Part shown: positions 29,419 to 63,698 of the stretch, piece by piece | Layout: every line of letters starts with the position of its first letter | How positions within the stretch are numbered: the stretch's first letter is position 1 | IMG/VR virus record: IMGVR_UViG_3300042558_005120 | Location: 1-64,000 of that record | Source: a virus | Length of the DNA stretch: 64,000 bases | Strand: one strand, 5' to 3' | The notes under the pieces: generated by a model | Told to the model about the DNA's origin: nothing | What the model saw: only the letters and a program-made list of their open reading frames with translations | Database searches by the model: none | Made by a program: the position numbers and the translations under genes

Positions 29419-31092
29419 CTCAATCTTTTCAACATCTAAATTGGAAAACCCATTGTTCTTTTGAACAACCACACGATAATCAAATATCTCAGTCGGTAGA
29501 GGACTGTGGTTAATAACAAATATATTTAGTTTTAATTCTCGACAAGTTTTATGTAGGACATTTAAGATATGGTAGATGCCATTCATATCAATTGAAGAAA
29601 ATATCTCGTCCAAAAAGAAAAGGTTAATACCAGAGAACCTCATTTTCATAATTCGCATTAAAGCAATGAGCACAGCAAAGTCCATTTTTTTTCTTTCGCC
29701 AGTAGATAATTGCTCAACTGCAATTTCATATCCTAAATGTTTAATGTCAACTGCAAATTCTTCATTAAATGTAACTCGGTATTCAAGTCCTAAAGCTGTT
29801 AGTACCTTTTTGATTTCTGAATTTAGAAGTGGCAAGATTTTTTTAATTGCAATAAGTTTAATTCCTCTGTCGCCAAATATTTCATCAACCAATCCGTAAA
29901 AGTTAATTCTTTTTGTTTCATTATCTTTCTTTTGGATTGCATCGTTTTTCCCACTTGTTGAGTTTTCAATAATATTTCTCAGTGCAACAGTTTGCTCATC
30001 GTTTCCATTTGATTCCGACAGTTGTTTCAATTCTTTATTTGAATTGCTAATTTGAAAGTTTGCTGCTGCAGTTTTGCCTTCAATTTCTTTTTTACTTTCT
30101 AATAGTTTTTTTCTTTTTTCACCTAATTCATTTAATTGTGTTGTTATATCAGCTAACTCTTCTTTAACCTCTTCGTTTTTCTCTAAATAGTTTTGTAACA
30201 ACTCTTTGTGATAGTCGGTATCTAAATTGGTTTCACAAGTAGGACATTGACCTTTTTGTAACAATTTTATTTTTCCGTCTCTTGCTTTTGTTTCATAATT
30301 AATTGAAGTTTGGTTTTGATTTAAAGCGTCAATTGCATCTTTCAATTCAGATTCAGCCCCGGACAGTTTTTCCAAATGTGCTTCTGCATTTTGTATATAT
30401 AATTCCAACTTTTCGATTTTTTCAATCAAGTGTTCTTTTTTCTCTTCTGCAGACTCGTTTAACTTTGTATTTAACAATTCCAATTCCAATGTTGAATTAT
30501 CAATAGTTCTAATCAGAACATTGATTTCAGTTGTAAGTTCATCAACTGCATCTTTGATTTCCCTAATTTTATTTTTAACTTTTGACCGCATATGAGTGAT
30601 AAGTTCAAGACCAAAGATTCGGTCAATGATGTTTCTTTTATCACTTGGACCCATATCCATAAAACTTTTAAAGTCGTTAATGGATAAGGAAATCATATTG
30701 TTAAAAATATAATAAGGAATGCCAAGTATCTCATCTTCCAAAAATGACTGAACATTTTTCTTCCCAGCTTGTTGATACTCAACGCCATTGACAGACAATT
30801 TGAAAAAGTTTGGAGCAACACCACGTTCAATTGTAATCTGCTCTAATCCATTTTTCTCTAACTCTATTTTAACATGGGCGTGCTTATTAAAACGGTTTGC
30901 AATATGTGCTAACTTTTTATTATCAAGTCTGCCGTATAAACCAAATTTGATTGCATCTGATAAACTACTTTTACCAGCACCATTATCACCAAGAACAATA
31001 TAAAAATTACCTTGTTGTTCATCAAATTCAATGGTCTGCCATCTGTTTCCGTATGATGCAAAGTTTTTAAAACTTACTGAACGTATTTTCAT
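29416..31092 (-). CDS. Recombination endonuclease ATPase subunit (gp46 / SbcC / Rad50)
   Basis: GDNGAGKS, CPTC zinc hook, LSTGE, FLDE. Confidence 0.92.
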   Translation of the reverse strand: MKIRSVSFKNFASYGNRWQTIEFDEQQGNFYIVLGDNGAGKSSLSDAIKFGLYGRLDNKKLAHIANRFNKHAHVKIELEKNGLEQITIERGVAPNFFKLSVNGVEYQQAGKKNVQSFLEDEILGIPYYIFNNMISLSINDFKSFMDMGPSDKRNIIDRIFGLELITHMRSKVKNKIREIKDAVDELTTEINVLIRTIDNSTLELELLNTKLNESAEEKKEHLIEKIEKLELYIQNAEAHLEKLSGAESELKDAIDALNQNQTSINYETKARDGKIKLLQKGQCPTCETNLDTDYHKELLQNYLEKNEEVKEELADITTQLNELGEKRKKLLESKKEIEGKTAAANFQISNSNKELKQLSESNGNDEQTVALRNIIENSTSGKNDAIQKKDNETKRINFYGLVDEIFGDRGIKLIAIKKILPLLNSEIKKVLTALGLEYRVTFNEEFAVDIKHLGYEIAVEQLSTGERKKMDFAVLIALMRIMKMRFSGINLFFLDEIFSSIDMNGIYHILNVLHKTCRELKLNIFVINHSPLPTEIFDYRVVVQKNNGFSNLDVEKIE

Positions 31093-31397
31093 TATTTTAT
31101 AAAATTAATATGGTCTAATGATTTAATCATTTTGTGAAACTCTTTAATAATAGCCCCACCTTTTCTTGGATTTCCTTTGTCCGTTAATAACGGAGTCAAC
31201 CCCATACATTCTGGATTATTAGTATTGCCCCAAGCCACATAATGTGTTTTATTTATCTTCACAGGTTCTTTCAGTAAAATTAAATATCGACCATCTTCGT
31301 GTTTATAACTCATTAGTTTTAAATAATCAGTAATACATTTTATGTATTTTTCACCAGTCAACCAATCAGGTTCGTAAGTAGGTTTTGTAAAGTACAT
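31092..31397 (-). CDS. Hypothetical protein between gp47 and gp46
   Basis: 101-aa ORF, translationally coupled. Confidence 0.5.
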   Translation of the reverse strand: MYFTKPTYEPDWLTGEKYIKCITDYLKLMSYKHEDGRYLILLKEPVKINKTHYVAWGNTNNPECMGLTPLLTDKGNPRKGGAIIKEFHKMIKSLDHINFIK

Positions 31398-31407
31398 AAT
31401 AATAAAT

Positions 31408-32526
31408 TTAGTTAATTATCATTTCATTATTTTTTTCCATATCTCGAAGTGTCTCGTGATAGATACCAGTACTTGTTTTTATCAAACGTTCTTTAATACT
31501 AGATGTATATGCTAATTCATTAACATAAGTTTCAATTAATTTAACAATCGAAATTGAGTCAGGATTTTCAATATCCCCTTCTATATCGTCCTCAACCTTT
31601 TCACCTTCTTCTTCGGTAATAATAACGTGATTGATTTTTCGATACCCAGACAGTTTATCCATAAAGACTGCAAATGGAAATTTCAGTGACCATTGCGGTG
31701 TCATATGAATATCCACAAAGTTATTGGCAAATAGACGTTGGATTGTTTCAATGTTTTGCTCGAGCAACCATTCAAGGCGATACCGCAAAAATTTAGGTGA
31801 CCGAGTATTCTCCCAAGAAGTTTCTTCTAATGTTTCCAAATCAACTCGCCAAACAGATTTAATATTGCCTGCATCCGAACGGGTCAGCTGATAAGGCGAA
31901 CCAACCATTCTAATGTTTTTATATTTTTGTGTATAGTGAATATGGCCGGAGTAGACTTGTGTATAATTGTTGAATACTTCTGCTTCATTTCCTTCTTCAA
32001 CTTTAACATTTCTACTGAATGAAACACCCCGGACATCGGTGTGGCAAAAAAGTAAATCAGCTTTGTTTTTTGGATTTTGGACAAATTCTCTAAGTTCATC
32101 TTCCTCTTCAACCCACGGCAAAAACATCCCTGTAGATTTTCCAAAATTAACAAGCTGCGGGTTTTCAAAAACTGTTACATTTTTTGTATGTTTAAAAAGC
32201 TTCATTGAGTTTATCTCATTTGTATGCTTCATAAAAATATCGTGGTTGCCGATAATAATATAAACCGGCAAAATATCCGCAAGTGCTTCGATAATCTCTT
32301 GGCCTTTATTCATAATATACAAATTAATAGACTGTCGAGAATCAAATGTATCGCCGCAGTGAATTAGAATATCACCGGGTTTGTGTTCGGATTTAATTAG
32401 TGGAATTAAAAAATTGTGAAAATAGTCATCAATTATTTCCATCCATTCTTTAGAATTATTTCTGACACCAAAATGTGTATCTGAAATAATCCAAGCTCTG
32501 GTTGCGGGAACATTTAAAGTAGTCAT
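31408..32526 (-). CDS. Recombination nuclease subunit (gp47 / SbcD / Mre11)
   Basis: SDTHFG, GDTFD, GNHD, SGHIH, GSPYQLT. Confidence 0.92.
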   Translation of the reverse strand: MTTLNVPATRAWIISDTHFGVRNNSKEWMEIIDDYFHNFLIPLIKSEHKPGDILIHCGDTFDSRQSINLYIMNKGQEIIEALADILPVYIIIGNHDIFMKHTNEINSMKLFKHTKNVTVFENPQLVNFGKSTGMFLPWVEEEDELREFVQNPKNKADLLFCHTDVRGVSFSRNVKVEEGNEAEVFNNYTQVYSGHIHYTQKYKNIRMVGSPYQLTRSDAGNIKSVWRVDLETLEETSWENTRSPKFLRYRLEWLLEQNIETIQRLFANNFVDIHMTPQWSLKFPFAVFMDKLSGYRKINHVIITEEEGEKVEDDIEGDIENPDSISIVKLIETYVNELAYTSSIKERLIKTSTGIYHETLRDMEKNNEMIIN

Positions 32527-32945
32527 TAAAAAAGTCGTTTAATATTTTTCTTTGCGAATATTTTATACTTGCCATCCAACTCACGGATAATTCGATCTTG
32601 GTATGCAGAACCTAATTCATTAAACAGTGTCTCATACGGCGCAGTCATAAATTCAGCAATTGCTGTAAACCTTTCAACCGCAGACATATCGTCAGACTTT
32701 AATCGGTCATCAAAGTAATAATAGATTTCTGCTAAAACTGATTTGCTGTTTTTTCGTGTTTTCTCAAAGTCCCCAGAATACGGTGACTCTTTGTAGATTT
32801 TGTATAAATCTTCTTGAAGCTTTGTTTCAATATAGTCTTCGTATAAATCCCCAGTTGCTTCTTGAACTACTTTAATTTCACCAAATAGTTCATAGTCAAT
32901 ATCCCCACGGTTAAAACTATTGTTAAATATTTTATCTTCTTTCAT
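32526..32945 (-). CDS. Hypothetical protein, possibly a gp33-like late transcription co-activator
   Basis: C-terminal helical pattern loosely like gp33; weak. Confidence 0.3.
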   Translation of the reverse strand: MKEDKIFNNSFNRGDIDYELFGEIKVVQEATGDLYEDYIETKLQEDLYKIYKESPYSGDFEKTRKNSKSVLAEIYYYFDDRLKSDDMSAVERFTAIAEFMTAPYETLFNELGSAYQDRIIRELDGKYKIFAKKNIKRLF

Positions 32946-37604: not shown

Positions 37605-38513
37605 TTATTTAACAAAAATTTCATCACCTTCTTCTAATTCATCAGCAGTAATCCAAGAATCCGTACTTGTAATATCATCTGGGTTAACCAAGAATAAGTG
37701 AAGTGGAGAACATTCAATTTTAATATCACCTTCAAAGTGTAGTTTAATAGTTCGGGTGTTATCATATTTAAATGTATCAACAACCGGCTGTGGTCCATCG
37801 ATTGTCATAACCACATCATTAATTTTGATTTCTTCTAGTTTTTTGCAAGTACCGTCTGCCATTTGTACTTCTGTATCACCTAAAGCACAAGCATAAGTGT
37901 GGTTTGTAAATATAAACGGGATTTTAAATTCAGCAAGGTCAGTTGTGATAACTCTAAAAAGTGAACGAAGATCTTGCTGTTTTGTCATATCCTTTTTCTC
38001 ACTTCCACTTGCAGCATCTACTTTTTCTTTTGTTGTTGCCAAGTTTCCTAATGAGTCTAACACCAACATAATTTTCGGAAGTTCAGTTCCTTTTTCTTTT
38101 GCTTTGCGTAAAGTGTCACATAAGTTAGCAACAAAGTGTCGGACTTCTAATGAAGTTGCAACTGGTTGGTAGCGAACTTTATCTGGGTCAATTCCAAAAT
38201 TTCTCATTATATCTTCATCCACTGCTGCTTCAGAGTCACAATAAATAATATTGTAACCCATCCTTTGAGCTTCACGGCAAGCATTTAATGTTAAAAAAGT
38301 TTTGCCCGTTCCTGACTCACCCGCAAAACAAATTGAACGAGAATTAGGTATCCCGCCAAAAAGTGAACCCGTTAATTGCGCATTTAATAAATAGTTACCA
38401 GTATCAATCCACTCATCAATTTTTGAAAAAGTATTCCCGGTAATAATTGAACCCTTTGGGTTGATTTTGGATAACACCGTATCCAATTCTGAAAAAGAAA
38501 ATCCTTTTGCCAT
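37605..38513 (-). CDS. uvsX: UvsX/RecA recombinase, N-terminal part (208 aa), fused to a 94-aa N-intein (Cys1 at 37889)
   Basis: AGESGTGKT, DSEAA, LDSLGNL, TNHTYA|CALGDTEVQMADG...CSPLH...ELEEGDEI. Confidence 0.9.
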   Translation of the reverse strand: MAKGFSFSELDTVLSKINPKGSIITGNTFSKIDEWIDTGNYLLNAQLTGSLFGGIPNSRSICFAGESGTGKTFLTLNACREAQRMGYNIIYCDSEAAVDEDIMRNFGIDPDKVRYQPVATSLEVRHFVANLCDTLRKAKEKGTELPKIMLVLDSLGNLATTKEKVDAASGSEKKDMTKQQDLRSLFRVITTDLAEFKIPFIFTNHTYACALGDTEVQMADGTCKKLEEIKINDVVMTIDGPQPVVDTFKYDNTRTIKLHFEGDIKIECSPLHLFLVNPDDITSTDSWITADELEEGDEIFVK

Positions 38514-55862: not shown

Positions 55863-55891
55863 AAAAAAAGGTCACAATCAATTGTGACCTT
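55863..55891 (-). terminator. Rho-independent terminator
   Basis: AAGGTCACAAT/ATTGTGACCTT stem plus T-run. Confidence 0.75.
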
Positions 55892-56150: not shown

Positions 56151-56807
56151 TTATTGTGCTATTTTAATATCTGTTGGTTTTATTATACTATCGAAAGTAA
56201 CAACAGACTTCATATCCTCTGGCATCAATGGGTCAACCCACCATGTATATCCCTTAGCGTTAATTTCCAATATAACCGGGTCGGGTATTTTAAAGTAATT
56301 AGTTATTTTTCTTGCTGCTCCAATTGATGTTACGCCAAAAACAGCTGCGTATAATTGCATTGTAACATTTTCACCAGATAATCCTTTACTGAAAGTTGAT
56401 GAGTGTGCCTGTGCCTCAGAAGCAATCAGCCCTTTTTGCATTATATTATCAAGATTTGCTTTTGCTGCAACGTGGAATACTTTTCTTGCTTTTACTGGTT
56501 TTGCAGCAATCATTGTTTTCATTTCGTTATCACTTGAATATCCTCTTAATGTTTTTAAAATAAGAATATTCTTATGCTGTCTACCATATTTTTCAATATC
56601 TGCTAATGTTTGTTTGATTTGTAATTCAGTAGAGGTGTCTATATTTACTAACACTCCGTTATCGAATACTTTAACTTCGGCAAAGCCATTTTTTTTAAAA
56701 ATAGCCGCAACATCTTGTTTGACTGCATTTGGATTGTAATTAGATTCATTGATTGAATCCAATTTAGACTCAAGCAAAAATTCATTAAATGTAAAAATTC
56801 TTTTCAT
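56151..56807 (-). CDS. Leader-tagged protein with an ADP-ribosyltransferase/KptA-like C-terminal domain
   Basis: MKRIFTFNEFLLES; VFHVAAKANLDNIMQKGL...AVF...VILEI...IKPTDI. Confidence 0.55.
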   Translation of the reverse strand: MKRIFTFNEFLLESKLDSINESNYNPNAVKQDVAAIFKKNGFAEVKVFDNGVLVNIDTSTELQIKQTLADIEKYGRQHKNILILKTLRGYSSDNEMKTMIAAKPVKARKVFHVAAKANLDNIMQKGLIASEAQAHSSTFSKGLSGENVTMQLYAAVFGVTSIGAARKITNYFKIPDPVILEINAKGYTWWVDPLMPEDMKSVVTFDSIIKPTDIKIAQ

Positions 56808-56815
56808 AATATTTT

Positions 56816-57253
56816 TTATTTTATTTCAACGTTGCGTTTTGCCTTAGCGGACAAATATTGAGGTATCAGTGTTTTGTAAAGTCTTCTGCGTTTTTCATCA
56901 GTTGCATCAATGATTACAGTTTTGTCATAACCATATGAATCTAAAAATTTTTCTATGATTGTGGTTATGGTTTTAAATAAAGTTCTAACATTACCTTCAC
57001 CGGTCATCTCAAAAGTATCAATCTTATTAAAATCTCCTTTATCAAGTCCAAATGATAGATCAAATTTCCCTTCTTCTGCGCGGTATTCTCCTGAATAAAA
57101 CACCACTTTGTATTGTTGCGTTGGCGAATTAAAAGTATATTCAGCGGTAAGTAATTCATCTTCATCGTCATATTGTTCCTCTTCTTCTCGAAAAGGATAT
57201 GGTTTTTCTAAACTTTCATTTATAAAGTCTTCAAATGTTTGGATGTGTTTCAT
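56816..57253 (-). CDS. Leader-tagged hypothetical protein
   Basis: MKHIQTFEDFINES. Confidence 0.65.
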   Translation of the reverse strand: MKHIQTFEDFINESLEKPYPFREEEEQYDDEDELLTAEYTFNSPTQQYKVVFYSGEYRAEEGKFDLSFGLDKGDFNKIDTFEMTGEGNVRTLFKTITTIIEKFLDSYGYDKTVIIDATDEKRRRLYKTLIPQYLSAKAKRNVEIK

Positions 57254-57271
57254 TTTGTATTACTTAAATTT

Positions 57272-58174
57272 TTATTTACTGATGAATTTTTTGAATTTAT
57301 CTAAAAACTCAATAAAATCTTTATCAAATAAATTTATACTTATTCCAATATCTTTTAATGATTCGATATAGTCAGAGAAATATTTTTTATCATATATCGT
57401 AGATTGTTCCAGAGTTTTAATTCCTATATTTGGGTACATTTTTTTATAACCTATATAAGTTTTGTAGTCATTCTTCTCAACGTATTGTTTCAATTTATCC
57501 AAATTCCTATCAATTATGCCAACATTTTTTTTGTAATCAGAATCTTCTAAATTATCAAATGAATATTCATAAAATAATTTCTCTAAAGTATCGAAAGTTG
57601 TATTCCAATCATATATACTTTTGGCAAGATCATCTCCCTGAAATTTAGTTTTTACATATGGAAGTATTTCACTCTTTTTTAATTCTGAATCCTTAGCCCA
57701 CTTAGGATATTTCTTTTTTAATTTATCAAGTAATTTGGAAATCATTTCCGCAATCATGTCTGGCCAAATTATAGTATTATCTTTATAAAGCCCAACACCT
57801 TCGTCATAAATCTCCTTGAAATCCCTTCCTTTATTTATATGCAAATAAACAGCGCCATACTCATTAGCATCAACATAAAATAGAGAAGTAATGTTTTTTC
57901 TATTTTGTGGGGTATTATCAACATCATAAAATTCAATGATTGAATCAATAATTGAATTTGTAACAACATCTATAATAATGCTGGACTTATTTATTCGAGC
58001 TACGTCAAATCTAATTTGCGTCTCATTCTTACCAATTTTAGTAAGACCTTTTTTATGACCCGTAATTTTGGTTAATGCATCAATTAAATTATTTGATATA
58101 AATGTCTTTGCATCGTAACTATCTAACGATTTCAATTCGTTTAAGAAACTTTCAAATGTTTGAATATATTTCAT
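57272..58174 (-). CDS. Leader-tagged hypothetical protein
   Basis: MKYIQTFESFLNE. Confidence 0.65.
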   Translation of the reverse strand: MKYIQTFESFLNELKSLDSYDAKTFISNNLIDALTKITGHKKGLTKIGKNETQIRFDVARINKSSIIIDVVTNSIIDSIIEFYDVDNTPQNRKNITSLFYVDANEYGAVYLHINKGRDFKEIYDEGVGLYKDNTIIWPDMIAEMISKLLDKLKKKYPKWAKDSELKKSEILPYVKTKFQGDDLAKSIYDWNTTFDTLEKLFYEYSFDNLEDSDYKKNVGIIDRNLDKLKQYVEKNDYKTYIGYKKMYPNIGIKTLEQSTIYDKKYFSDYIESLKDIGISINLFDKDFIEFLDKFKKFISK

Positions 58175-58189
58175 CTGTTTTTTGATATT

Positions 58190-58477
58190 TTATTCACCAT
58201 ACCAAGAATATCCATACTCTTCATATTTGCTATGGACTTCTTTTGGTGTTTTATCTTTATACCATGCAGAACCCAATTTTTGAGAAAGCCCTAATTTCAC
58301 AGCTTCACGTTCAATGGCATCCATTTTTTTAATTTCTGCCATGTTATAGTTAGAGTCCTTTACTTTTTGACCTTGTGCATACATATCATCAAGAAGTTTC
58401 TCTACTTTTTTAGGATCTAATCCCTCGTTTAGTTCTGCTTCATTCAAGAAGCTTTCAAATGTTTTGATGTGTTTCAT
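58190..58477 (-). CDS. Leader-tagged hypothetical protein
   Basis: MKHIKTFESFLNEA. Confidence 0.65.
   Translation of the reverse strand: MKHIKTFESFLNEAELNEGLDPKKVEKLLDDMYAQGQKVKDSNYNMAEIKKMDAIEREAVKLGLSQKLGSAWYKDKTPKEVHSKYEEYGYSWYGE
58439..58477. repeat. 39-bp leader-coding direct repeat, 38/39 identical to 59496-59534
   Basis: TTCATTCAAGAAGCTTTCAAATGTTTT(G/A)ATGTGTTTCAT. Confidence 0.9.
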
Positions 58478-58482
58478 AATAA

Positions 58483-58842
58483 TTATTTCTTTAATTTTTT
58501 AGCAAAGTTTATCAAATAATCATTAGCAAAGTCTTCTATTGTTTTTATATAGTCAGGTATTTTTTCAGTTCTAACTTTTATTGCTAATTTTCCCGCCTTT
58601 GTTAGAATTAGAGCAACTTTGCCATCCTCATAACCTAATTTGTAATGACTGACATTTAATGTTTTATAAGTACCGAACTTATCGCCCATAGCTAATCCTA
58701 ACCCAACGTCTGCTTTTGGTAGATTCTGAGCTGGAATTTCGGAAGAAGGTACTGATGTAAGAATATAATTTAATGATTTACCTGTGGCTTCTATAATAGA
58801 TTCTTCATTTAAGAAGCTTTCAAATGTGTGGATATGATTCAT
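58483..58842 (-). CDS. Leader-tagged hypothetical protein
   Basis: MNHIHTFESFLNEES. Confidence 0.65.
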   Translation of the reverse strand: MNHIHTFESFLNEESIIEATGKSLNYILTSVPSSEIPAQNLPKADVGLGLAMGDKFGTYKTLNVSHYKLGYEDGKVALILTKAGKLAIKVRTEKIPDYIKTIEDFANDYLINFAKKLKK

Positions 58843-58857
58843 CTGTTTTTTGTTATT

Positions 58858-59085
58858 TTATTCATCTCCGTAAAGTTCGTGATATTTTTTAGTGTGCTTG
58901 GACGTTTTTAGCAGTTTCTTGCCTTTAGTATCACCTGGCATTTCTTTGTATGCTTTGGGGTCATCGTCATCCATATCAGCTTGTTTTGCGATTTGTGCTT
59001 TCTTCTTGGCTGCAGTACTCTTTGAGATTCCCTTAAAGTAGCCGCCTTCTCTTACAAATTCTTCAAAAGATTGTGTATATTTCAT
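58858..59085 (-). CDS. Leader-tagged small basic protein
   Basis: MKYTQSFEEFVREG...AYKEMPGD...SKHTKKY. Confidence 0.65.
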   Translation of the reverse strand: MKYTQSFEEFVREGGYFKGISKSTAAKKKAQIAKQADMDDDDPKAYKEMPGDTKGKKLLKTSKHTKKYHELYGDE

Positions 59086-59534
59086 TTTTCTACTACAAAT
59101 TTTGGCTTGCCCTCTATGGCCTGTGTATATTTCTTACCTGTTTCCTTACTTAAAGCCTTTAAGTAATTGTTTATGTAACTAATAATGTTTTTGGCTCCAA
59201 CCGGATTGTCCGAATGTACTGTTATCTCAGGAAACTCTTCTCCACTAATGACTTTTTCATCACACAAGTCCATGTGATATTCCACCAGCCAGTCTGCTGC
59301 AGATTTACCAGTCTTTTCAGAACCGCCTGTAAAATCATTAAGGTCGTGGTCAAAAGATATTTTGCTAATGTTGTCAAGGCCGTGTTTTTTGACCGCCTTT
59401 ACAAAGTCTGAGTAGGTTCTAACAATAATCCACTTCTTGTCAATAGGAGTTCTCAGGTCATCCAGGTATATCCACACACCGTTAGAATTGCTGGATTCAT
59501 TCAAGAAGCTTTCAAATGTTTTAATGTGTTTCAT
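59082..59534 (-). CDS. Leader-tagged receiver-like domain of the cyclic-phosphate-processing type
   Basis: MKHIKTFESFLNES; IYLDDLRTP...ISFDHDL...TG...VHSDNPVG. Confidence 0.7.
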   Translation of the reverse strand: MKHIKTFESFLNESSNSNGVWIYLDDLRTPIDKKWIIVRTYSDFVKAVKKHGLDNISKISFDHDLNDFTGGSEKTGKSAADWLVEYHMDLCDEKVISGEEFPEITVHSDNPVGAKNIISYINNYLKALSKETGKKYTQAIEGKPKFVVEK

Positions 59535-59543
59535 TATTATGCT

Positions 59544-59885
59544 TTATTTTTTAGGATTGAATCCAGAATCTCTTGCTTCTTTGGCTAAATCTTTATCTGC
59601 TTTCCCCCATGTTCCTTCACCGCCAGATAAAAAGCTGTTAACTCTGGCGTACGCCCACTGTTCCTGTCCTGCACCTGGACGGTGTCCGCTTTTCCATGCT
59701 GCCATTCCACGGCGAAAAACTGCACGAATTATCCCAATCGGACATCCGGATTCGTCGGCTTTATTCTTTACGCCGGTCTCCAGCTCTTCGCTGCCCAACG
59801 GTCCGCGGTCAGTAGACTTCTGTTCGTTATCATCGGCTTCGTGTAAATAATCCAGCAACCAGCTTTCAAATAATTTTATAAACAT
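59544..59885 (-). CDS. Leader-tagged protein (DUF5824-like)
   Basis: MFIKLFESWL; KADESG...VFRRGMAAW...RPG...QWAYARVNSF. Confidence 0.6.
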   Translation of the reverse strand: MFIKLFESWLLDYLHEADDNEQKSTDRGPLGSEELETGVKNKADESGCPIGIIRAVFRRGMAAWKSGHRPGAGQEQWAYARVNSFLSGGEGTWGKADKDLAKEARDSGFNPKK

Positions 59886-59886
59886 T

Positions 59887-60798
59887 TTATTTTCTTATTT
59901 TATTAATATCCTCTACAAATACTTTAATTGCCTCTTCTGGGTCAAATATACTGAACTGTGGCGCTTGGTTAACTTCTAAAACATACCATTCACCTGTATC
60001 TTTATTTTGTACTAGATCAACACCAGACGTATAGAAACCCATAGAATCATGAGCACGTTTTGCTATATTCATTTCTTCAAATCCTAATGCTACTCTTTTG
60101 CCCGTTCCGCCTAATGAAATATTATTTCTAAATTCTCCGGCTTCTTGACTTGAGCGCTTAACTGTAAATACGTTTTTGTTTCCAATAAAGAAAACACGGT
60201 AATCACAGTCATTCGGAATAAACTCCTGAATTAACAAAACATCATTTTTTAATTTTCCTGCTACTCGTTTTAATTCGGTTTCATTCTTAACAATTGTAAC
60301 ACCTCTTCCTTGTGAGCCGTGTGCGGGTTTTAAGACAATTGGAAATTCATAGTTAGTAGAAACAAAATCAACATTGCAACTTGAGCCTGTGCAGGTATAT
60401 GTTTTAGGAATATTCACATTATTTTCAGATAGCACTTGTAGCTGTTTATATTTATTGCTAGTATATCTTGGTTGTCCGTAACAAAGAAGTGATATGTCCT
60501 TTTCTTTACAGTATTTTTCTACCAACAGAAAATTTTCATACGCATCTGTATCGGCACCATACGAATTAACCAATCCAATAAATACCAATGAATACTCATC
60601 TAATTTCGTTGTATTGTTGAATAGATGCCCATCAAAAAAGTGTATATTATCCAAACTTGAGAATTCTGAGTCGCTGATGTATTTTTTAGTTAACTTTTCT
60701 ACATTATACATCTTATCTTCCATATCACTACAGTCAAAGGAAAAATCTAAAAATAAAACAGGTTTACGTTTATCTAAAAAATCAAAATATGTAATCAT
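59887..60798 (-). CDS. RimK-like ATP-grasp ligase with degenerate leader (MITYFDFL)
   Basis: NK...IPKT, PIVLKP..GSQGRGV, IQEFI, DYRV, FRNNISLGG, GVD, LEVN. Confidence 0.85.
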   Translation of the reverse strand: MITYFDFLDKRKPVLFLDFSFDCSDMEDKMYNVEKLTKKYISDSEFSSLDNIHFFDGHLFNNTTKLDEYSLVFIGLVNSYGADTDAYENFLLVEKYCKEKDISLLCYGQPRYTSNKYKQLQVLSENNVNIPKTYTCTGSSCNVDFVSTNYEFPIVLKPAHGSQGRGVTIVKNETELKRVAGKLKNDVLLIQEFIPNDCDYRVFFIGNKNVFTVKRSSQEAGEFRNNISLGGTGKRVALGFEEMNIAKRAHDSMGFYTSGVDLVQNKDTGEWYVLEVNQAPQFSIFDPEEAIKVFVEDINKIRK

Positions 60799-60815
60799 AT
60801 GTAAGTAATTATTTT

Positions 60816-60824
60816 TATATATCA
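60816..60824 (-). promoter_or_regulatory. Late-type promoter motif TGATATATA inside the leader-tagged array
   Basis: Recurrent motif. Confidence 0.65.
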
Positions 60825-60825
60825 A

Positions 60826-61350
60826 TTACCAAGGCTCATCGGATGTAAGACCTAATTGCTTATAAAAAAGCGATGGACCATAACACGCCCAGAACCCGGC
60901 CTTGTTTGGATCCATTTTTTTCTGTAAATCACATTGGTGTCTAGACCAAAAATTGGCTGCAGCACCAGGATCGCTATTTTTAATACTTAATCCAGAAGCA
61001 TCGCCCCATTCTATCTTCTTTGCAATTATATTGCCTTTCTCATCCACTTTTCCGCTGTTTCGATATACAACGAATTTTTTGTTTCCACCTCTGCTAGGCG
61101 TATCTAATTCAACTTGGCGGCCATCGTATATTGCCTTTTTTCCAACTTCTAAATTTTTTGCCATCCAGGCGGCTTTGTCATTAAGAATAATATTGCCTTC
61201 GTCCCAGTACTTTTTAGTCTCTTCAAAAAGGCTTTTGTATGCATCACTGCCTAAACGGTAAATGCTATTAGTAACGTCCAACCCATTGTCCATGTGGTAC
61301 TGGAACCCTTCACTAACCTGAAAGTCTTCAAATGTCTTTACGTATTTCAT
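60826..61350 (-). CDS. Leader-tagged protein (DUF6321-like)
   Basis: MKYVKTFEDFQVSEG; KKFVVY...WGD...FWSRHQC...AGFWAC. Confidence 0.6.
   Translation of the reverse strand: MKYVKTFEDFQVSEGFQYHMDNGLDVTNSIYRLGSDAYKSLFEETKKYWDEGNIILNDKAAWMAKNLEVGKKAIYDGRQVELDTPSRGGNKKFVVYRNSGKVDEKGNIIAKKIEWGDASGLSIKNSDPGAAANFWSRHQCDLQKKMDPNKAGFWACYGPSLFYKQLGLTSDEPW
61327..61350. repeat. 24-bp leader-coding direct repeat, identical to 61688-61711
   Basis: TTCAAATGTCTTTACGTATTTCAT. Confidence 0.9.
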
Positions 61351-61711
61351 TCTTTAGTGCTTTTTCTATAGTTTTATCAACTCCCCATTCCGGTAAATCT
61401 GTATAGTCATCTTCACTCTTACCTTTTTCAAAACCACTATCTTCAATTTTTACCGCCATTCCTCGATATTTCTTTTCAAAATCTTTAAGTGATTTTTTCC
61501 CGGCACCATCAAAAAACTTTCCGTCGTCTTCTATAAAGTAATGCTGTATTGTAGGACTTGGTTTATATGTTTTGTCAAGAATCCCCCATAGTTGTGACTC
61601 GGGATGTAAGGCTTTGTACGTAGCTGCATATGCCCCACAATAACCATCAACCGTCCAAGCAAGAGTTCCTGAATTGTCTGTAAAACTTTCAAATGTCTTT
61701 ACGTATTTCAT
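61328..61711 (-). CDS. Leader-tagged protein with a possible Cys-His-Asp (papain/transglutaminase-like) triad
   Basis: MKYVKTFESF; GYCGAYA...HYFI...FFDGAG. Confidence 0.5.
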   Translation of the reverse strand: MKYVKTFESFTDNSGTLAWTVDGYCGAYAATYKALHPESQLWGILDKTYKPSPTIQHYFIEDDGKFFDGAGKKSLKDFEKKYRGMAVKIEDSGFEKGKSEDDYTDLPEWGVDKTIEKALKNEIRKDI

Positions 61712-61718
61712 ATATTAT

Positions 61719-61928
61719 TTATTTTTTATATTCTGGAGATTTTACTTTTTTACCTTTGTCGGGACCACCTTCTCTCGGTATCATACCTTGTGCAATCAAT
61801 GAAGTTTTAACACCAAACGGAATATCCTTTCCGCTTTCATAATCCTTTTTATATTTATCAAGTGTTTCTTTTGCGTATGGCGAATCTTTTTCTTGTATAA
61901 AATATTCAAAGGATTTAATGTGTTGCAT
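61719..61928 (-). CDS. Leader-tagged small protein
   Basis: MQHIKSFEYFIQEK. Confidence 0.6.
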   Translation of the reverse strand: MQHIKSFEYFIQEKDSPYAKETLDKYKKDYESGKDIPFGVKTSLIAQGMIPREGGPDKGKKVKSPEYKK

Positions 61929-61941
61929 AAAAATAATTTAT

Positions 61942-62166
61942 TTAAAATTTAAGATTGCCACGTTCAACAGAATAGCCTTCCTTTGCTAAAATTGGTTCCA
62001 CTGCTGTTGCGATTGCATTACCTAACTCTGTAAACAATGCCATATCAAAATTAACCAGACCCAATCCAATGACTGCGTTTTTAATATTATACCTTGATAT
62101 AATCCTTTTTTCATTTATATCTTCTGATTCTGAAATCGAGAATTCTTCAAATTTTTTAATTTTCAT
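61942..62166 (-). CDS. Leader-tagged small protein
   Basis: MKIKKFEEFSISES. Confidence 0.6.
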   Translation of the reverse strand: MKIKKFEEFSISESEDINEKRIISRYNIKNAVIGLGLVNFDMALFTELGNAIATAVEPILAKEGYSVERGNLKF

Positions 62167-62168
62167 TT

Positions 62169-62774
62169 TTATAAGTATTTTTTTAATTCATTATAATATT
62201 TATGTAAAACAGGTGGCATCATTGAGTCAAATGTAGATTTATCATCAGCAGAAATTGCATTTCTAACTGCTGTTCCACTTGCGCCATCTTCATCTCTATT
62301 ATTTACTGACTTGACCATGAATTCCTCGGGTATGGAAATTCCATATTTTTCTTGAAACTGTTTAGCTCTCAGGATTTGCTTTTCATAATCAGATAAACGA
62401 TCTGAACCACACGCCATTCCAATGGGCTCGAAGCCGTCTCGCCTAATGAAATCTACCACGTTTGAAACAAAATTAGGATGCTCTCTGTCTGTCTTATAAA
62501 TTATAAAATCAGCAATAAATGATCTATACTCCTTTGCGATATCTTTTCCTATTTTTGCTAAAAGCTGCTCTGGAAAAGGAGACTTACTGTTTTGTGAAAG
62601 TATTTGAACCGGAATAACCTTTGCGCCAAAAACTTCAGACGCTCTTTTGATTGAACCTAAGTGCCCATTGTGAAAAGGTTGAAATCTACCAGGGAAGTAA
62701 ATTATCCTTTCTGAATTTGCTTCATATATTTGCGATTCGGCAAGAAATTCTAAAAATGAGTTAACGTATTTCAT
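62169..62774 (-). CDS. Leader-tagged HIGH-family nucleotidyltransferase (cytidylyltransferase/NMNAT-like)
   Basis: MKYVNSFLEFLAES; PGRFQPFHNGH, GSDR, SGTAVR. Confidence 0.8.
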   Translation of the reverse strand: MKYVNSFLEFLAESQIYEANSERIIYFPGRFQPFHNGHLGSIKRASEVFGAKVIPVQILSQNSKSPFPEQLLAKIGKDIAKEYRSFIADFIIYKTDREHPNFVSNVVDFIRRDGFEPIGMACGSDRLSDYEKQILRAKQFQEKYGISIPEEFMVKSVNNRDEDGASGTAVRNAISADDKSTFDSMMPPVLHKYYNELKKYL

Positions 62775-62783
62775 TTGAATTTT

Positions 62784-63698
62784 TTATTTAATATCCCAGT
62801 TTACTGGAGTATAGGCATTGATTTTTGCTAAAACATTATCAGCAATTTGCTCGGCCGCAATTGTTGGTTTGCCTGCTCTTTTTACATAAACGTAAAAAGA
62901 CTCAGTTAGCATTACGGTTTTACCTTTTTTATGTCGAGACACAACTCCAATTTCGGCTGGAATAGTTTGTTGTTTTGTTACCACTTCAGTATCAACTCCG
63001 GCCTGGACAAAAGTAAAGACAATATCGCCATTCATATATCTATTAATTTCTTCACCCATTGTAATAAGTTTTAGCATTGTTGCTGATGCACCTTCGTGGG
63101 TGCCAAATAAAATATTACCCGGAACAACCCGAGAACGACTAAGGTTTTGTTGCTGTGCTACTGAAATATGATTAATAACCCATACAATATGAATGTGGTC
63201 CGGGTCATATCCAAGTTCATTTGCAAATTGAGTAATCTCATTAAGTTTTTTGATGTTCTTTAAAGTAACATCAAAAATTAAATTAGGTTTTCGATCTGGA
63301 GCTGCTGCCAATACTGAAGCATACATTCTTTGCATCTTCTTTTCGTCTACGCCGTATTCATCACCAACCACTGCGTGTAACTGTGCAACATCTTCGGGTG
63401 TTTTGAGATTCATTTTTGTAATGTCTATTCCGGTTTCTGCTTTTGCTTTTGCCGCGAAATTCTTGCTTTTCATTGCGAGTGATTTCAGCTCATCAACATC
63501 AAACACCCAGCCGTCAAGACCAATTAAATTATCTTTAATAAATCCTTTTCCGCTACCAGCACCACCTGCCATAATTACAATATTGCCAAACGGCTGATAA
63601 GGTTTGTTGTTGAAAACTATCAGTTTTTCTAATAGTTCATCTTTTGAATTGGATTCCCTAATAAATTCAGTAAGGGATTTTAAGTACTTTAAACCCAT
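62784..63698 (-). CDS. Leader-tagged P-loop kinase (zeta-toxin / AAA_33-like)
   Basis: LKYLKSLTEFIRES; MAGGAGSGKG, DVD, IFDVT, RSRVVP. Confidence 0.7.
   Translation of the reverse strand: MGLKYLKSLTEFIRESNSKDELLEKLIVFNNKPYQPFGNIVIMAGGAGSGKGFIKDNLIGLDGWVFDVDELKSLAMKSKNFAAKAKAETGIDITKMNLKTPEDVAQLHAVVGDEYGVDEKKMQRMYASVLAAAPDRKPNLIFDVTLKNIKKLNEITQFANELGYDPDHIHIVWVINHISVAQQQNLSRSRVVPGNILFGTHEGASATMLKLITMGEEINRYMNGDIVFTFVQAGVDTEVVTKQQTIPAEIGVVSRHKKGKTVMLTESFYVYVKRAGKPTIAAEQIADNVLAKINAYTPVNWDIK

Follow-up and report, generated by a model that had tools for sequence, protein, structure and literature searches.

The window examined here, i.e., the whole stretch of DNA that was analysed, comprises the first 64 kb of the 109,206-bp IMG/VR record IMGVR_UViG_3300042558_005120 (hereafter G0), and window coordinates are identical to record positions. 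The record has a G+C content of 34%, holds nearly all of its genes on the minus strand and is rated by CheckV as ~38% complete. Given that rating, the full genome of this uncultured, giant, AT-rich phage may be near 290 kb. The subject of this analysis is an array of 15 consecutive minus-strand genes (56151-63698), 14 of which begin with a common N-terminal leader of 13 codons, of the MKHIKTFESFLNE type, or with a variant of it, and one with a decayed leader. About 22 leader genes are present in the 109-kb record, including a second cluster at 96,978-101,324. The gaps between genes of the main array range from -23 to +27 nucleotides (nt). The leader and the short untranslated region (UTR) in front of it are the only sequence common to these gene cassettes, with no room for intergenic regulatory repeats. 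In an alignment of 17 gapless leaders and the variants, position 13 is Glu in 15 of the 17 and position 11 is mostly Leu, Ile or Val, both being read as a sequence pattern only. The parts of the genes behind the leader (the cargos) showed no pairwise similarity in an all-against-all BLASTP comparison with leaders trimmed, and their Pfam matches fall into unrelated families: Zeta_toxin, CTP_transf_like, RimK, cREC_REC, DUF6934 and DUF5824.

A first-pass annotation of this locus had described three pairs of near-identical segments as recently duplicated leader-coding DNA, through which unrelated genes could be shuffled. The positions and identities of all three were reproduced exactly, all copies span the starts of minus-strand genes, and no similarity was found between the cargos behind the repeated leaders, as had been claimed. 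The copies, with protein lengths in amino acids (aa), are the following:

58439-58477, minus strand: repeat 1, copy 1, the 13-codon leader of the 95-aa gene (38/39 identical to copy 2)
59496-59534, minus strand: repeat 1, copy 2, the leader of the 150-aa cREC_REC gene (38/39)
61327-61350, minus strand: repeat 2, the first 8 codons of the 174-aa gene (24/24; identical also in the relatives R1 and G5, described below)
61688-61711, minus strand: repeat 2, the first 8 codons of the 127-aa gene (24/24)
58136-58196, minus strand: copy 1 of a 61-nt module, with the end and stop codon of the 95-aa gene, a 15-nt UTR and the leader of the 300-aa gene
58804-58864, minus strand: copy 2 of the 61-nt module, with the end of the 75-aa gene, the UTR and the leader of the 119-aa gene (54/61 identical to copy 1)

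Repeat 3 (58172-58196 against 58840-58864, 24/25) lies inside the longer 61-nt module. The 75-aa and 95-aa proteins both have a Y-G-(D)-E C-terminus, located just upstream of this module.

Two close relatives from IMG/VR were available for comparison. R1 (IMGVR_UViG_3300017722_004839) covers the main array, and R2 (IMGVR_UViG_3300017778_008252) covers the second cluster, the main array being outside its contig. Farther relatives are G4 (126 kb), G5 (101 kb, IMGVR_UViG_3300042691_038651) and the metagenome contigs L026 and L027, which have backbone genes around the array in common with G0, share few cassettes with it, and carry ~20-25 leader genes apiece. Every genome compared is a metagenome assembly, pairs entering the leader and codon statistics are not phylogenetically independent, and genes called extra or absent are so in R1 relative to G0, with no direction of event implied.

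The DNA common to G0 and R1 is ~96% identical, yet five gene-content events were found within ~12 kb. Event A consists of two extra R1 cassettes at genome positions 67,033-67,050, with a stop codon/spacer at both joints. In event B, the nucleotidyltransferase is represented by a 43%-divergent allele and R1 holds an extra 306-aa gene. Event C is the lack of the 127-aa gene (61328-61711) in R1; its left joint is the 3′ end of a 69-aa gene, and its right joint lies ~110 nt inside the cargo of the 174-aa gene, the 24-nt leader being identical in all copies. Event D sets the 150-aa and 75-aa genes of G0 against a divergent 75-aa allele and an extra 138-aa gene in R1, and event E sets the G0 95-aa cargo against an unrelated 150-aa cargo. 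The corresponding features within the window are:

62775-62783, minus strand: event B joint, right after the stop codon of the 304-aa gene, with the divergent nucleotidyltransferase allele beyond it
62167-62185, minus strand: event B joint within the UTR of the 74-aa gene, marking the return of identity to R1
61328-61711, minus strand: the 127-aa cassette, present in G0 and absent from R1, with other cargos in this slot in L026 and G5
61231-61326, minus strand: divergent patch of the 174-aa gene (~30% differences to R1), directly after the 24-nt repeat
59535-59543, minus strand: left joint of event D, a 9-nt spacer directly after the stop codon of the 113-aa gene
59082-59534, minus strand: the 150-aa cREC_REC cassette, absent from R1
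58825-58842, minus strand: right joint of event D, inside the leader of the 119-aa gene, upstream of which R1 has the extra 138-aa gene
58438-58470, minus strand: left crossover interval of event E, nt 8-40 of the 95-aa gene, in its leader
58190-58438, minus strand: cargo of the 95-aa gene, in whose place R1 has the unrelated 150-aa cargo
58162-58174, minus strand: right crossover interval of event E, in the leader of the 300-aa gene, no farther than 12 nt from its start

Nine of the ten main-array joints lie about -30 to +39 nt from a start codon; by location, leader codons contain three joints, stop codons or UTRs six, and cargo one, or two if a joint inside the 75-aa gene is counted. The 119-aa gene illustrates how sharp such a joint can be, as 4 of the 18 nt of codons 1-6 differ between G0 and R1, followed by a single difference in 321 nt. 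Across orthologous genes, the rate of differences is 2.3 times higher in leaders than in cargos (26/390 against 149/5040, or 6.7% against 3.0%; P=3e-4), and the excess of leader differences is confined to those adjoining indels. It had been predicted that gene order would differ among relatives and that breakpoints of gain, loss and replacement would fall at the leaders; order does differ, and the joints of gained, lost or swapped genes are found at leaders, UTRs or stop codons.

A further case comes from the second array, where the leader of a 112-aa gene of R2 is a chimera. The UTR and codons 1-8 of this gene agree with the leader at genome position 97660, the sequence from codon 9 onward corresponds to the gene at 97316, and the intervening 110-aa cargo is missing. 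Crossing over between two leaders in direct repeat would be expected to yield just such a product. This array thereby adds one joint inside leader codons to the three of the main array, four in total. In G0 itself, a 650-aa open reading frame (ORF) of the same region (genome 97328-99280, outside the window) contains a complete internal leader at 97660; two cassettes seem to be fused in frame there, since the corresponding position in R2 is a stop codon.

Rearrangement of leaders and cargos is also seen among the farther relatives. The R1 cargo that replaces the 95-aa gene has an L026 homologue that occupies another slot and follows another version of the leader (69% identical, E=3e-79), and a different cargo family adjoins the nucleotidyltransferase in R1 and is located at the far array end in G4 and G5. 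Upstream of the 174-aa gene, R1 has an empty slot that in G0, L026 and G5 is filled by three unrelated cargos, which have nearly the same first 30 nt, resembling the leader of the neighbouring gene. Moreover, R1 carries duplicate leader DNA on unrelated cargos (43/43 nt; 13/13 same-residue codons, P=1.2e-4) with differing UTRs, and G5 carries a duplicate module on unrelated cargos that is identical over 60/60 nt, including 15 nt of UTR. Similarity between leaders is greater for neighbouring genes than for non-adjacent ones in R1 (P=0.007), G5 (P=0.008) and G4 (P=0.04). Likewise, population variants of the 150-aa cREC cargo have four leader versions in front of almost identical bodies, and those of the 174-aa protein differ mainly in the first 40 residues.

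Some additional structures were recorded in the same material. G5 has a second mini-array at 30290-32628 with eight short cassettes (77-114 aa), two of which share 60 identical nt including the UTR; seven start with MKHIH/STFE.. and one with a variant leader. P0008, a 214-aa population variant, represents a fusion in which the 119-aa gene is joined to the 95-aa gene and the second leader has become internal, and in P0031, a variant of the 300-aa protein (57272-58174), a wholly different N-terminus beginning MKIIITERQ.. is joined at the L-N-E-L of the leader end.

Taken together, we assign a probability of roughly two in three (0.68) to the reading that the repeats are conserved 13-codon leader DNA with a short A-rich UTR, heading the cassettes of a hyperplastic array, and that homology-driven crossover at these heads swaps the cargos. 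The leader and UTR would supply 20-60 nt of near-identity in one reading frame, at which the phage's own homologous-recombination machinery could cross over, either among relatives that infect the same cell or among the cassettes of a single genome, possibly through circular intermediates, so that cargos would be deleted, inserted or swapped with their frames intact. Ordinary recombination in homologous neighbouring genes would operate alongside, as event C and the joint inside the 75-aa gene suggest. Cassette shuffling as such is supported by the genome comparisons, in which gene gain, loss and replacement among relatives appear to have occurred at joints within leader DNA or right beside it. 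Singer et al. reportedly found in 1982 that T4-type recombination works on short homologies.

The age of the repeats was addressed with a null expectation that keeps the same amino acids and draws on the genome's own codon usage, applied to 136 leader pairs. In the 38/39 pair, 11 of 12 same-residue codons are identical against 6.4 expected (P=0.0034), and in the 24/24 pair 8 of 8 against 4.7 (P=0.0105); neither leader-only repeat is significant after correction for the 136 pairs. On the other hand, repeat 3 is identical at 21/22 positions upstream of the ATG, with 17/22 as the next-best value among the upstream regions of 5,565 gene pairs, and since its UTR is such a clear outlier, the 61-nt module really was copied. 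The first-pass annotation had asked for a comparison of synonymous identity in leaders with codon-bias expectation, and on that count the two leader-only repeats fall short. The 24-mer, which in fact extends over 36 nt, is letter-perfect at the start of the G5 orthologue from the 174-aa family, the remaining gene being ~73% identical, so the leader-only identity is old and maintained rather than recent, and a recent duplication of the 24-mer was rejected. The description of the repeats as recently duplicated is thus not supported, the leader-only identities being largely explained by amino-acid constraint and codon bias, and the repeats cannot be dated as recent.

As a class, however, leader DNA shows extra synonymous conservation that is absent from ordinary genes. 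The Thr6 codon is ACA in 12/12 leaders (genome frequency 0.46) and the Ser9 codon is AGY in 8/8 (genome frequency 0.31). In orthologous leaders of distant genomes, 76 of 113 same-residue codons are identical against 57.7 expected (P=1.8e-4, with the pairs non-independent), the corresponding share in the cargos of the same orthologues being 45%. A general codon effect at the 5′ end of the mRNA was considered and rejected, as the first 13 codons of 64 ordinary orthologous pairs gave 46.8% against 44.8%, i.e., no effect. Leader codon identity is also slightly higher within a genome than between genomes (0.659 against 0.603, permutation P=8e-4).

One could go further and suppose that leader DNA is near-identical at synonymous sites clade-wide because it doubles as a dedicated in-frame recombination site, a coding counterpart of att sites or of the promoter/stem-loop elements (PeSLs) of T-even phages. 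On this view, each single-crossover integration of an excised cassette circle would have left identical leaders side by side as its scar, and the array would represent an integrase-free capture system in which incoming genes are equipped with a capsid-loading tag. We regard this extension as tentative, with the odds clearly against it.

Conversely, the repeats could be a mere by-product of a conserved peptide and codon bias, in which case leader DNA would be no special crossover site and cassettes would move by homologous recombination in neighbouring genes or by illegitimate events filtered to gene boundaries. The corrected codon test, the majority of joints at a stop codon or UTR, and the cargo-internal positions of the right joint of the 127-aa event and of a 75-aa gene joint would all fit such an explanation. 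It does not account for the four joints inside leader codons, at which one flank is devoid of other homology, or for the in-register chimeric leaders; nor does it predict leader or UTR-plus-leader modules duplicated with unrelated cargos in three genomes, or a synonymous excess that ordinary genes lack. We therefore consider constraint as the sole cause unlikely.

Several observations nevertheless weigh against homology-driven crossover at leader DNA as the source of the shuffling. For six of the ten joints the site is a stop codon or UTR and not the leader, and for one or two it is cargo, which implies that ordinary recombination in homologous flanks also moves cassettes. The idea of leader and UTR as a homology arm thus holds insofar as this zone behaves as a crossover zone, and it has to be relaxed for most of the joints, which are at stop codons and UTRs, and for those in cargo. 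The single-pair codon tests lose significance upon correction, as said above; the greater likeness of adjacent leaders is not significant in G0 by itself (P=0.13); and the within-genome codon excess is small (0.66 against 0.60). Since gene-breaking joints are lost in any case, mechanism is inseparable from selection, and selection against broken genes alone would concentrate the surviving joints at gene boundaries. Finally, the G0 record seems to lack the head genes, and all genomes are metagenome assemblies.

The last point raises the question of whether short-read assemblers joined strain variants at the 24-60-nt repeats, which are near assembly k-mer length, so that indels and swaps would represent chimeric contigs. 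Each genome has unique cargo sequences that mis-joining could not create, independent short contigs of the protein collection contain the same alleles, the 119-aa/95-aa fusion among them confirming the local order, and distant relatives with ~70% identity give the same pattern. An assembly artefact is accordingly very improbable. Tandem duplication of whole genes followed by divergence, with the leader as the only part still recognisable, is just as improbable, since the paralogous 113-aa and 75-aa genes and a tandem pair of 345-aa and 344-aa genes in L026 are outweighed by cargos that belong to different Pfam families and lack any pairwise BLASTP similarity, for which reason cargos as divergent paralogues were rejected.

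Genes and sites relevant to the proposed crossover and to the fate of the leader-tagged proteins include:

37605-38513, minus strand: RecA/UvsX-type recombinase fragment with a Hint domain, a candidate crossover enzyme
62784-63698, minus strand: 304-aa gene with the longer leader variant MGLKYLKSLTEFIRES and a Zeta_toxin match (PF06414, E=4e-8)
59887-60798, minus strand: ATP-grasp (RimK-like) gene with the decayed leader MITYFDFLD, in G0 and R1
55868-55891, minus strand: hairpin with a 10-bp, G+C-containing stem and a T run, after a small holin-like gene, downstream of the array

The first-pass annotation had attributed the exchange to UvsX-type recombination in an integrase-free array. A RecA/UvsX-type gene is indeed present, and its product may be the enzyme that performs the crossovers. 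No match to PF00589, the tyrosine integrase family, was obtained in the incomplete G0 record, compared with matches in 14/14 control genomes, in agreement with the integrase-free character proposed for the array. An S77 protease and a gp23-type capsid protein likewise had no match in the 38%-complete record, but the control genomes were equally silent for these. A 143-kb related record with the same leader does have a Peptidase_S77 match (E=4e-14), pointing to a prohead protease. T4 carries the capsid targeting leader MKTYQEFIAE (PMC8442874; PMC9026906), and in view of the likeness to it, the conserved F-[LIV]-x-E and the Peptidase_S77 match, the leader peptide most likely acts like that targeting sequence. 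It would load unrelated cargos into the prohead, among them a Zeta-toxin-like kinase, a nucleotidyltransferase, an ATP-grasp enzyme, a cREC-REC protein and small unknowns, and would afterwards be cleaved off behind the terminal F-[LIV]-x-E. The 304-aa protein may be such a leader-tagged kinase.

Regarding the remaining features of the array, no excess of promoter-like sites (37 against 37.3 expected) or terminator-like sites (5 against 4.7 expected) was found, and the hairpin at 55868-55891 is the sole good/strong terminator-like site near the array. ATP-grasp orthologues in L026 and L027 have a canonical leader, and the position of the gene differs in L026. A metagenome scan with the ATP-grasp protein as query returned the known contig and two relatives ~52% identical, and nothing else. 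The 113-aa DUF5824 protein (59544-59885, minus strand) and the 75-aa protein (58858-59085, minus strand) fall into one family, and are for that reason taken as paralogues within the array. The ORF of the 127-aa protein overlaps the next leader by 23 nt in another frame (61328-61350), its stop codon being the TGA within TTTGAA of that leader, and its cargo has no homologue beyond its own 90% cluster. The phage collection searched yielded no close relative among cultured phages, with just three weak matches of 130-230 nt. Flavobacterium phage immuto has a homologue of the DUF6934 cargo with a different N-terminus. The leader motif was not found in the literature searched.

If leader DNA works as proposed, one short sequence would have two jobs, the peptide addressing proteins to the virion and the DNA letting the population trade them, which would explain how a phage maintains a rapidly changing repertoire of enzymes and anti-defence proteins that are probably injected. 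The array also represents a natural set of leader-cargo fusions for studying and engineering protein delivery by phage heads, and the polymorphic joints are concrete targets for polymerase chain reaction and read mapping.

The closest known counterparts are the internal protein (IP) loci of T-even phages, two highly polymorphic loci in which diverse injected proteins share only a leader (PMC3012670, PMC9026906, PMC12373910). The capsid targeting sequence is carried by IPI, IPII, IPIII and Alt of T4 (PMC3012670, PMC9026906), the former three also being described as Ip1-3 (PMC12373910). Similar to these loci, the array comprises unrelated proteins with just a short N-terminal leader in common, ending in an [L/I]-x-E motif, and the number, order and identity of genes are polymorphic among close relatives, with no integrase involved. 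The leader sequence, however, is different and has 13 residues, and the array is far larger, with 15-25 cassettes per locus and ~22 in a partial genome, enzymes included. Furthermore, packaging and cleavage of the array proteins are predictions.

In T-evens and in RB49/phi1, shuffling has been ascribed to PeSLs in intergenic regions, and mini-circles have been shown (PMC2839356; Comeau et al. 2014, PMC4122927). A passage in Arbiol et al. 2010 (PMC2839356) credits Repoila et al. 1994 with having seen PeSL-like elements at IP loci. As in PeSL shuffling, phage pairs ~96% identical differ mostly by insertion, deletion and replacement of small ORFs, joints are located in short repeated elements at gene boundaries, exchange is integrase-free, and the cassettes can be compared to those of integrons. 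The arms proposed for T-evens are intergenic early-promoter/stem-loop elements, whereas here the arms would be the coding leader and UTR, with spacers of only -23 to +27 nt. PeSLs are non-coding promoter-plus-terminator cassettes, and because the repeat of the array is protein-coding, the array lacks the defining feature of a PeSL.

Integron arrays resemble the locus in being rows of promoterless unrelated cassettes in one orientation, subject to gain, loss and reordering. They differ in that no tyrosine recombinase was found in the G0 record and exchange here appears to be homology-driven; no attC-type sites were noticed in the array, in an inspection that included no search aimed at attC. 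Another parallel is offered by the bacterial Rhs/CdiA polymorphic toxin loci with orphan cassettes, where a large constant N-terminal delivery domain is followed by a variable C-terminal part. In both cases a conserved coding segment would be the homology arm that puts new unrelated modules behind a constant delivery part, with the difference that each cassette of the phage array is a separate gene with a 13-residue N-terminal tag. If the interpretation holds, the G0 array extends the idea of the T-even IP locus and of PeSL shuffling to a distant uncultured lineage and to a coding repeat.

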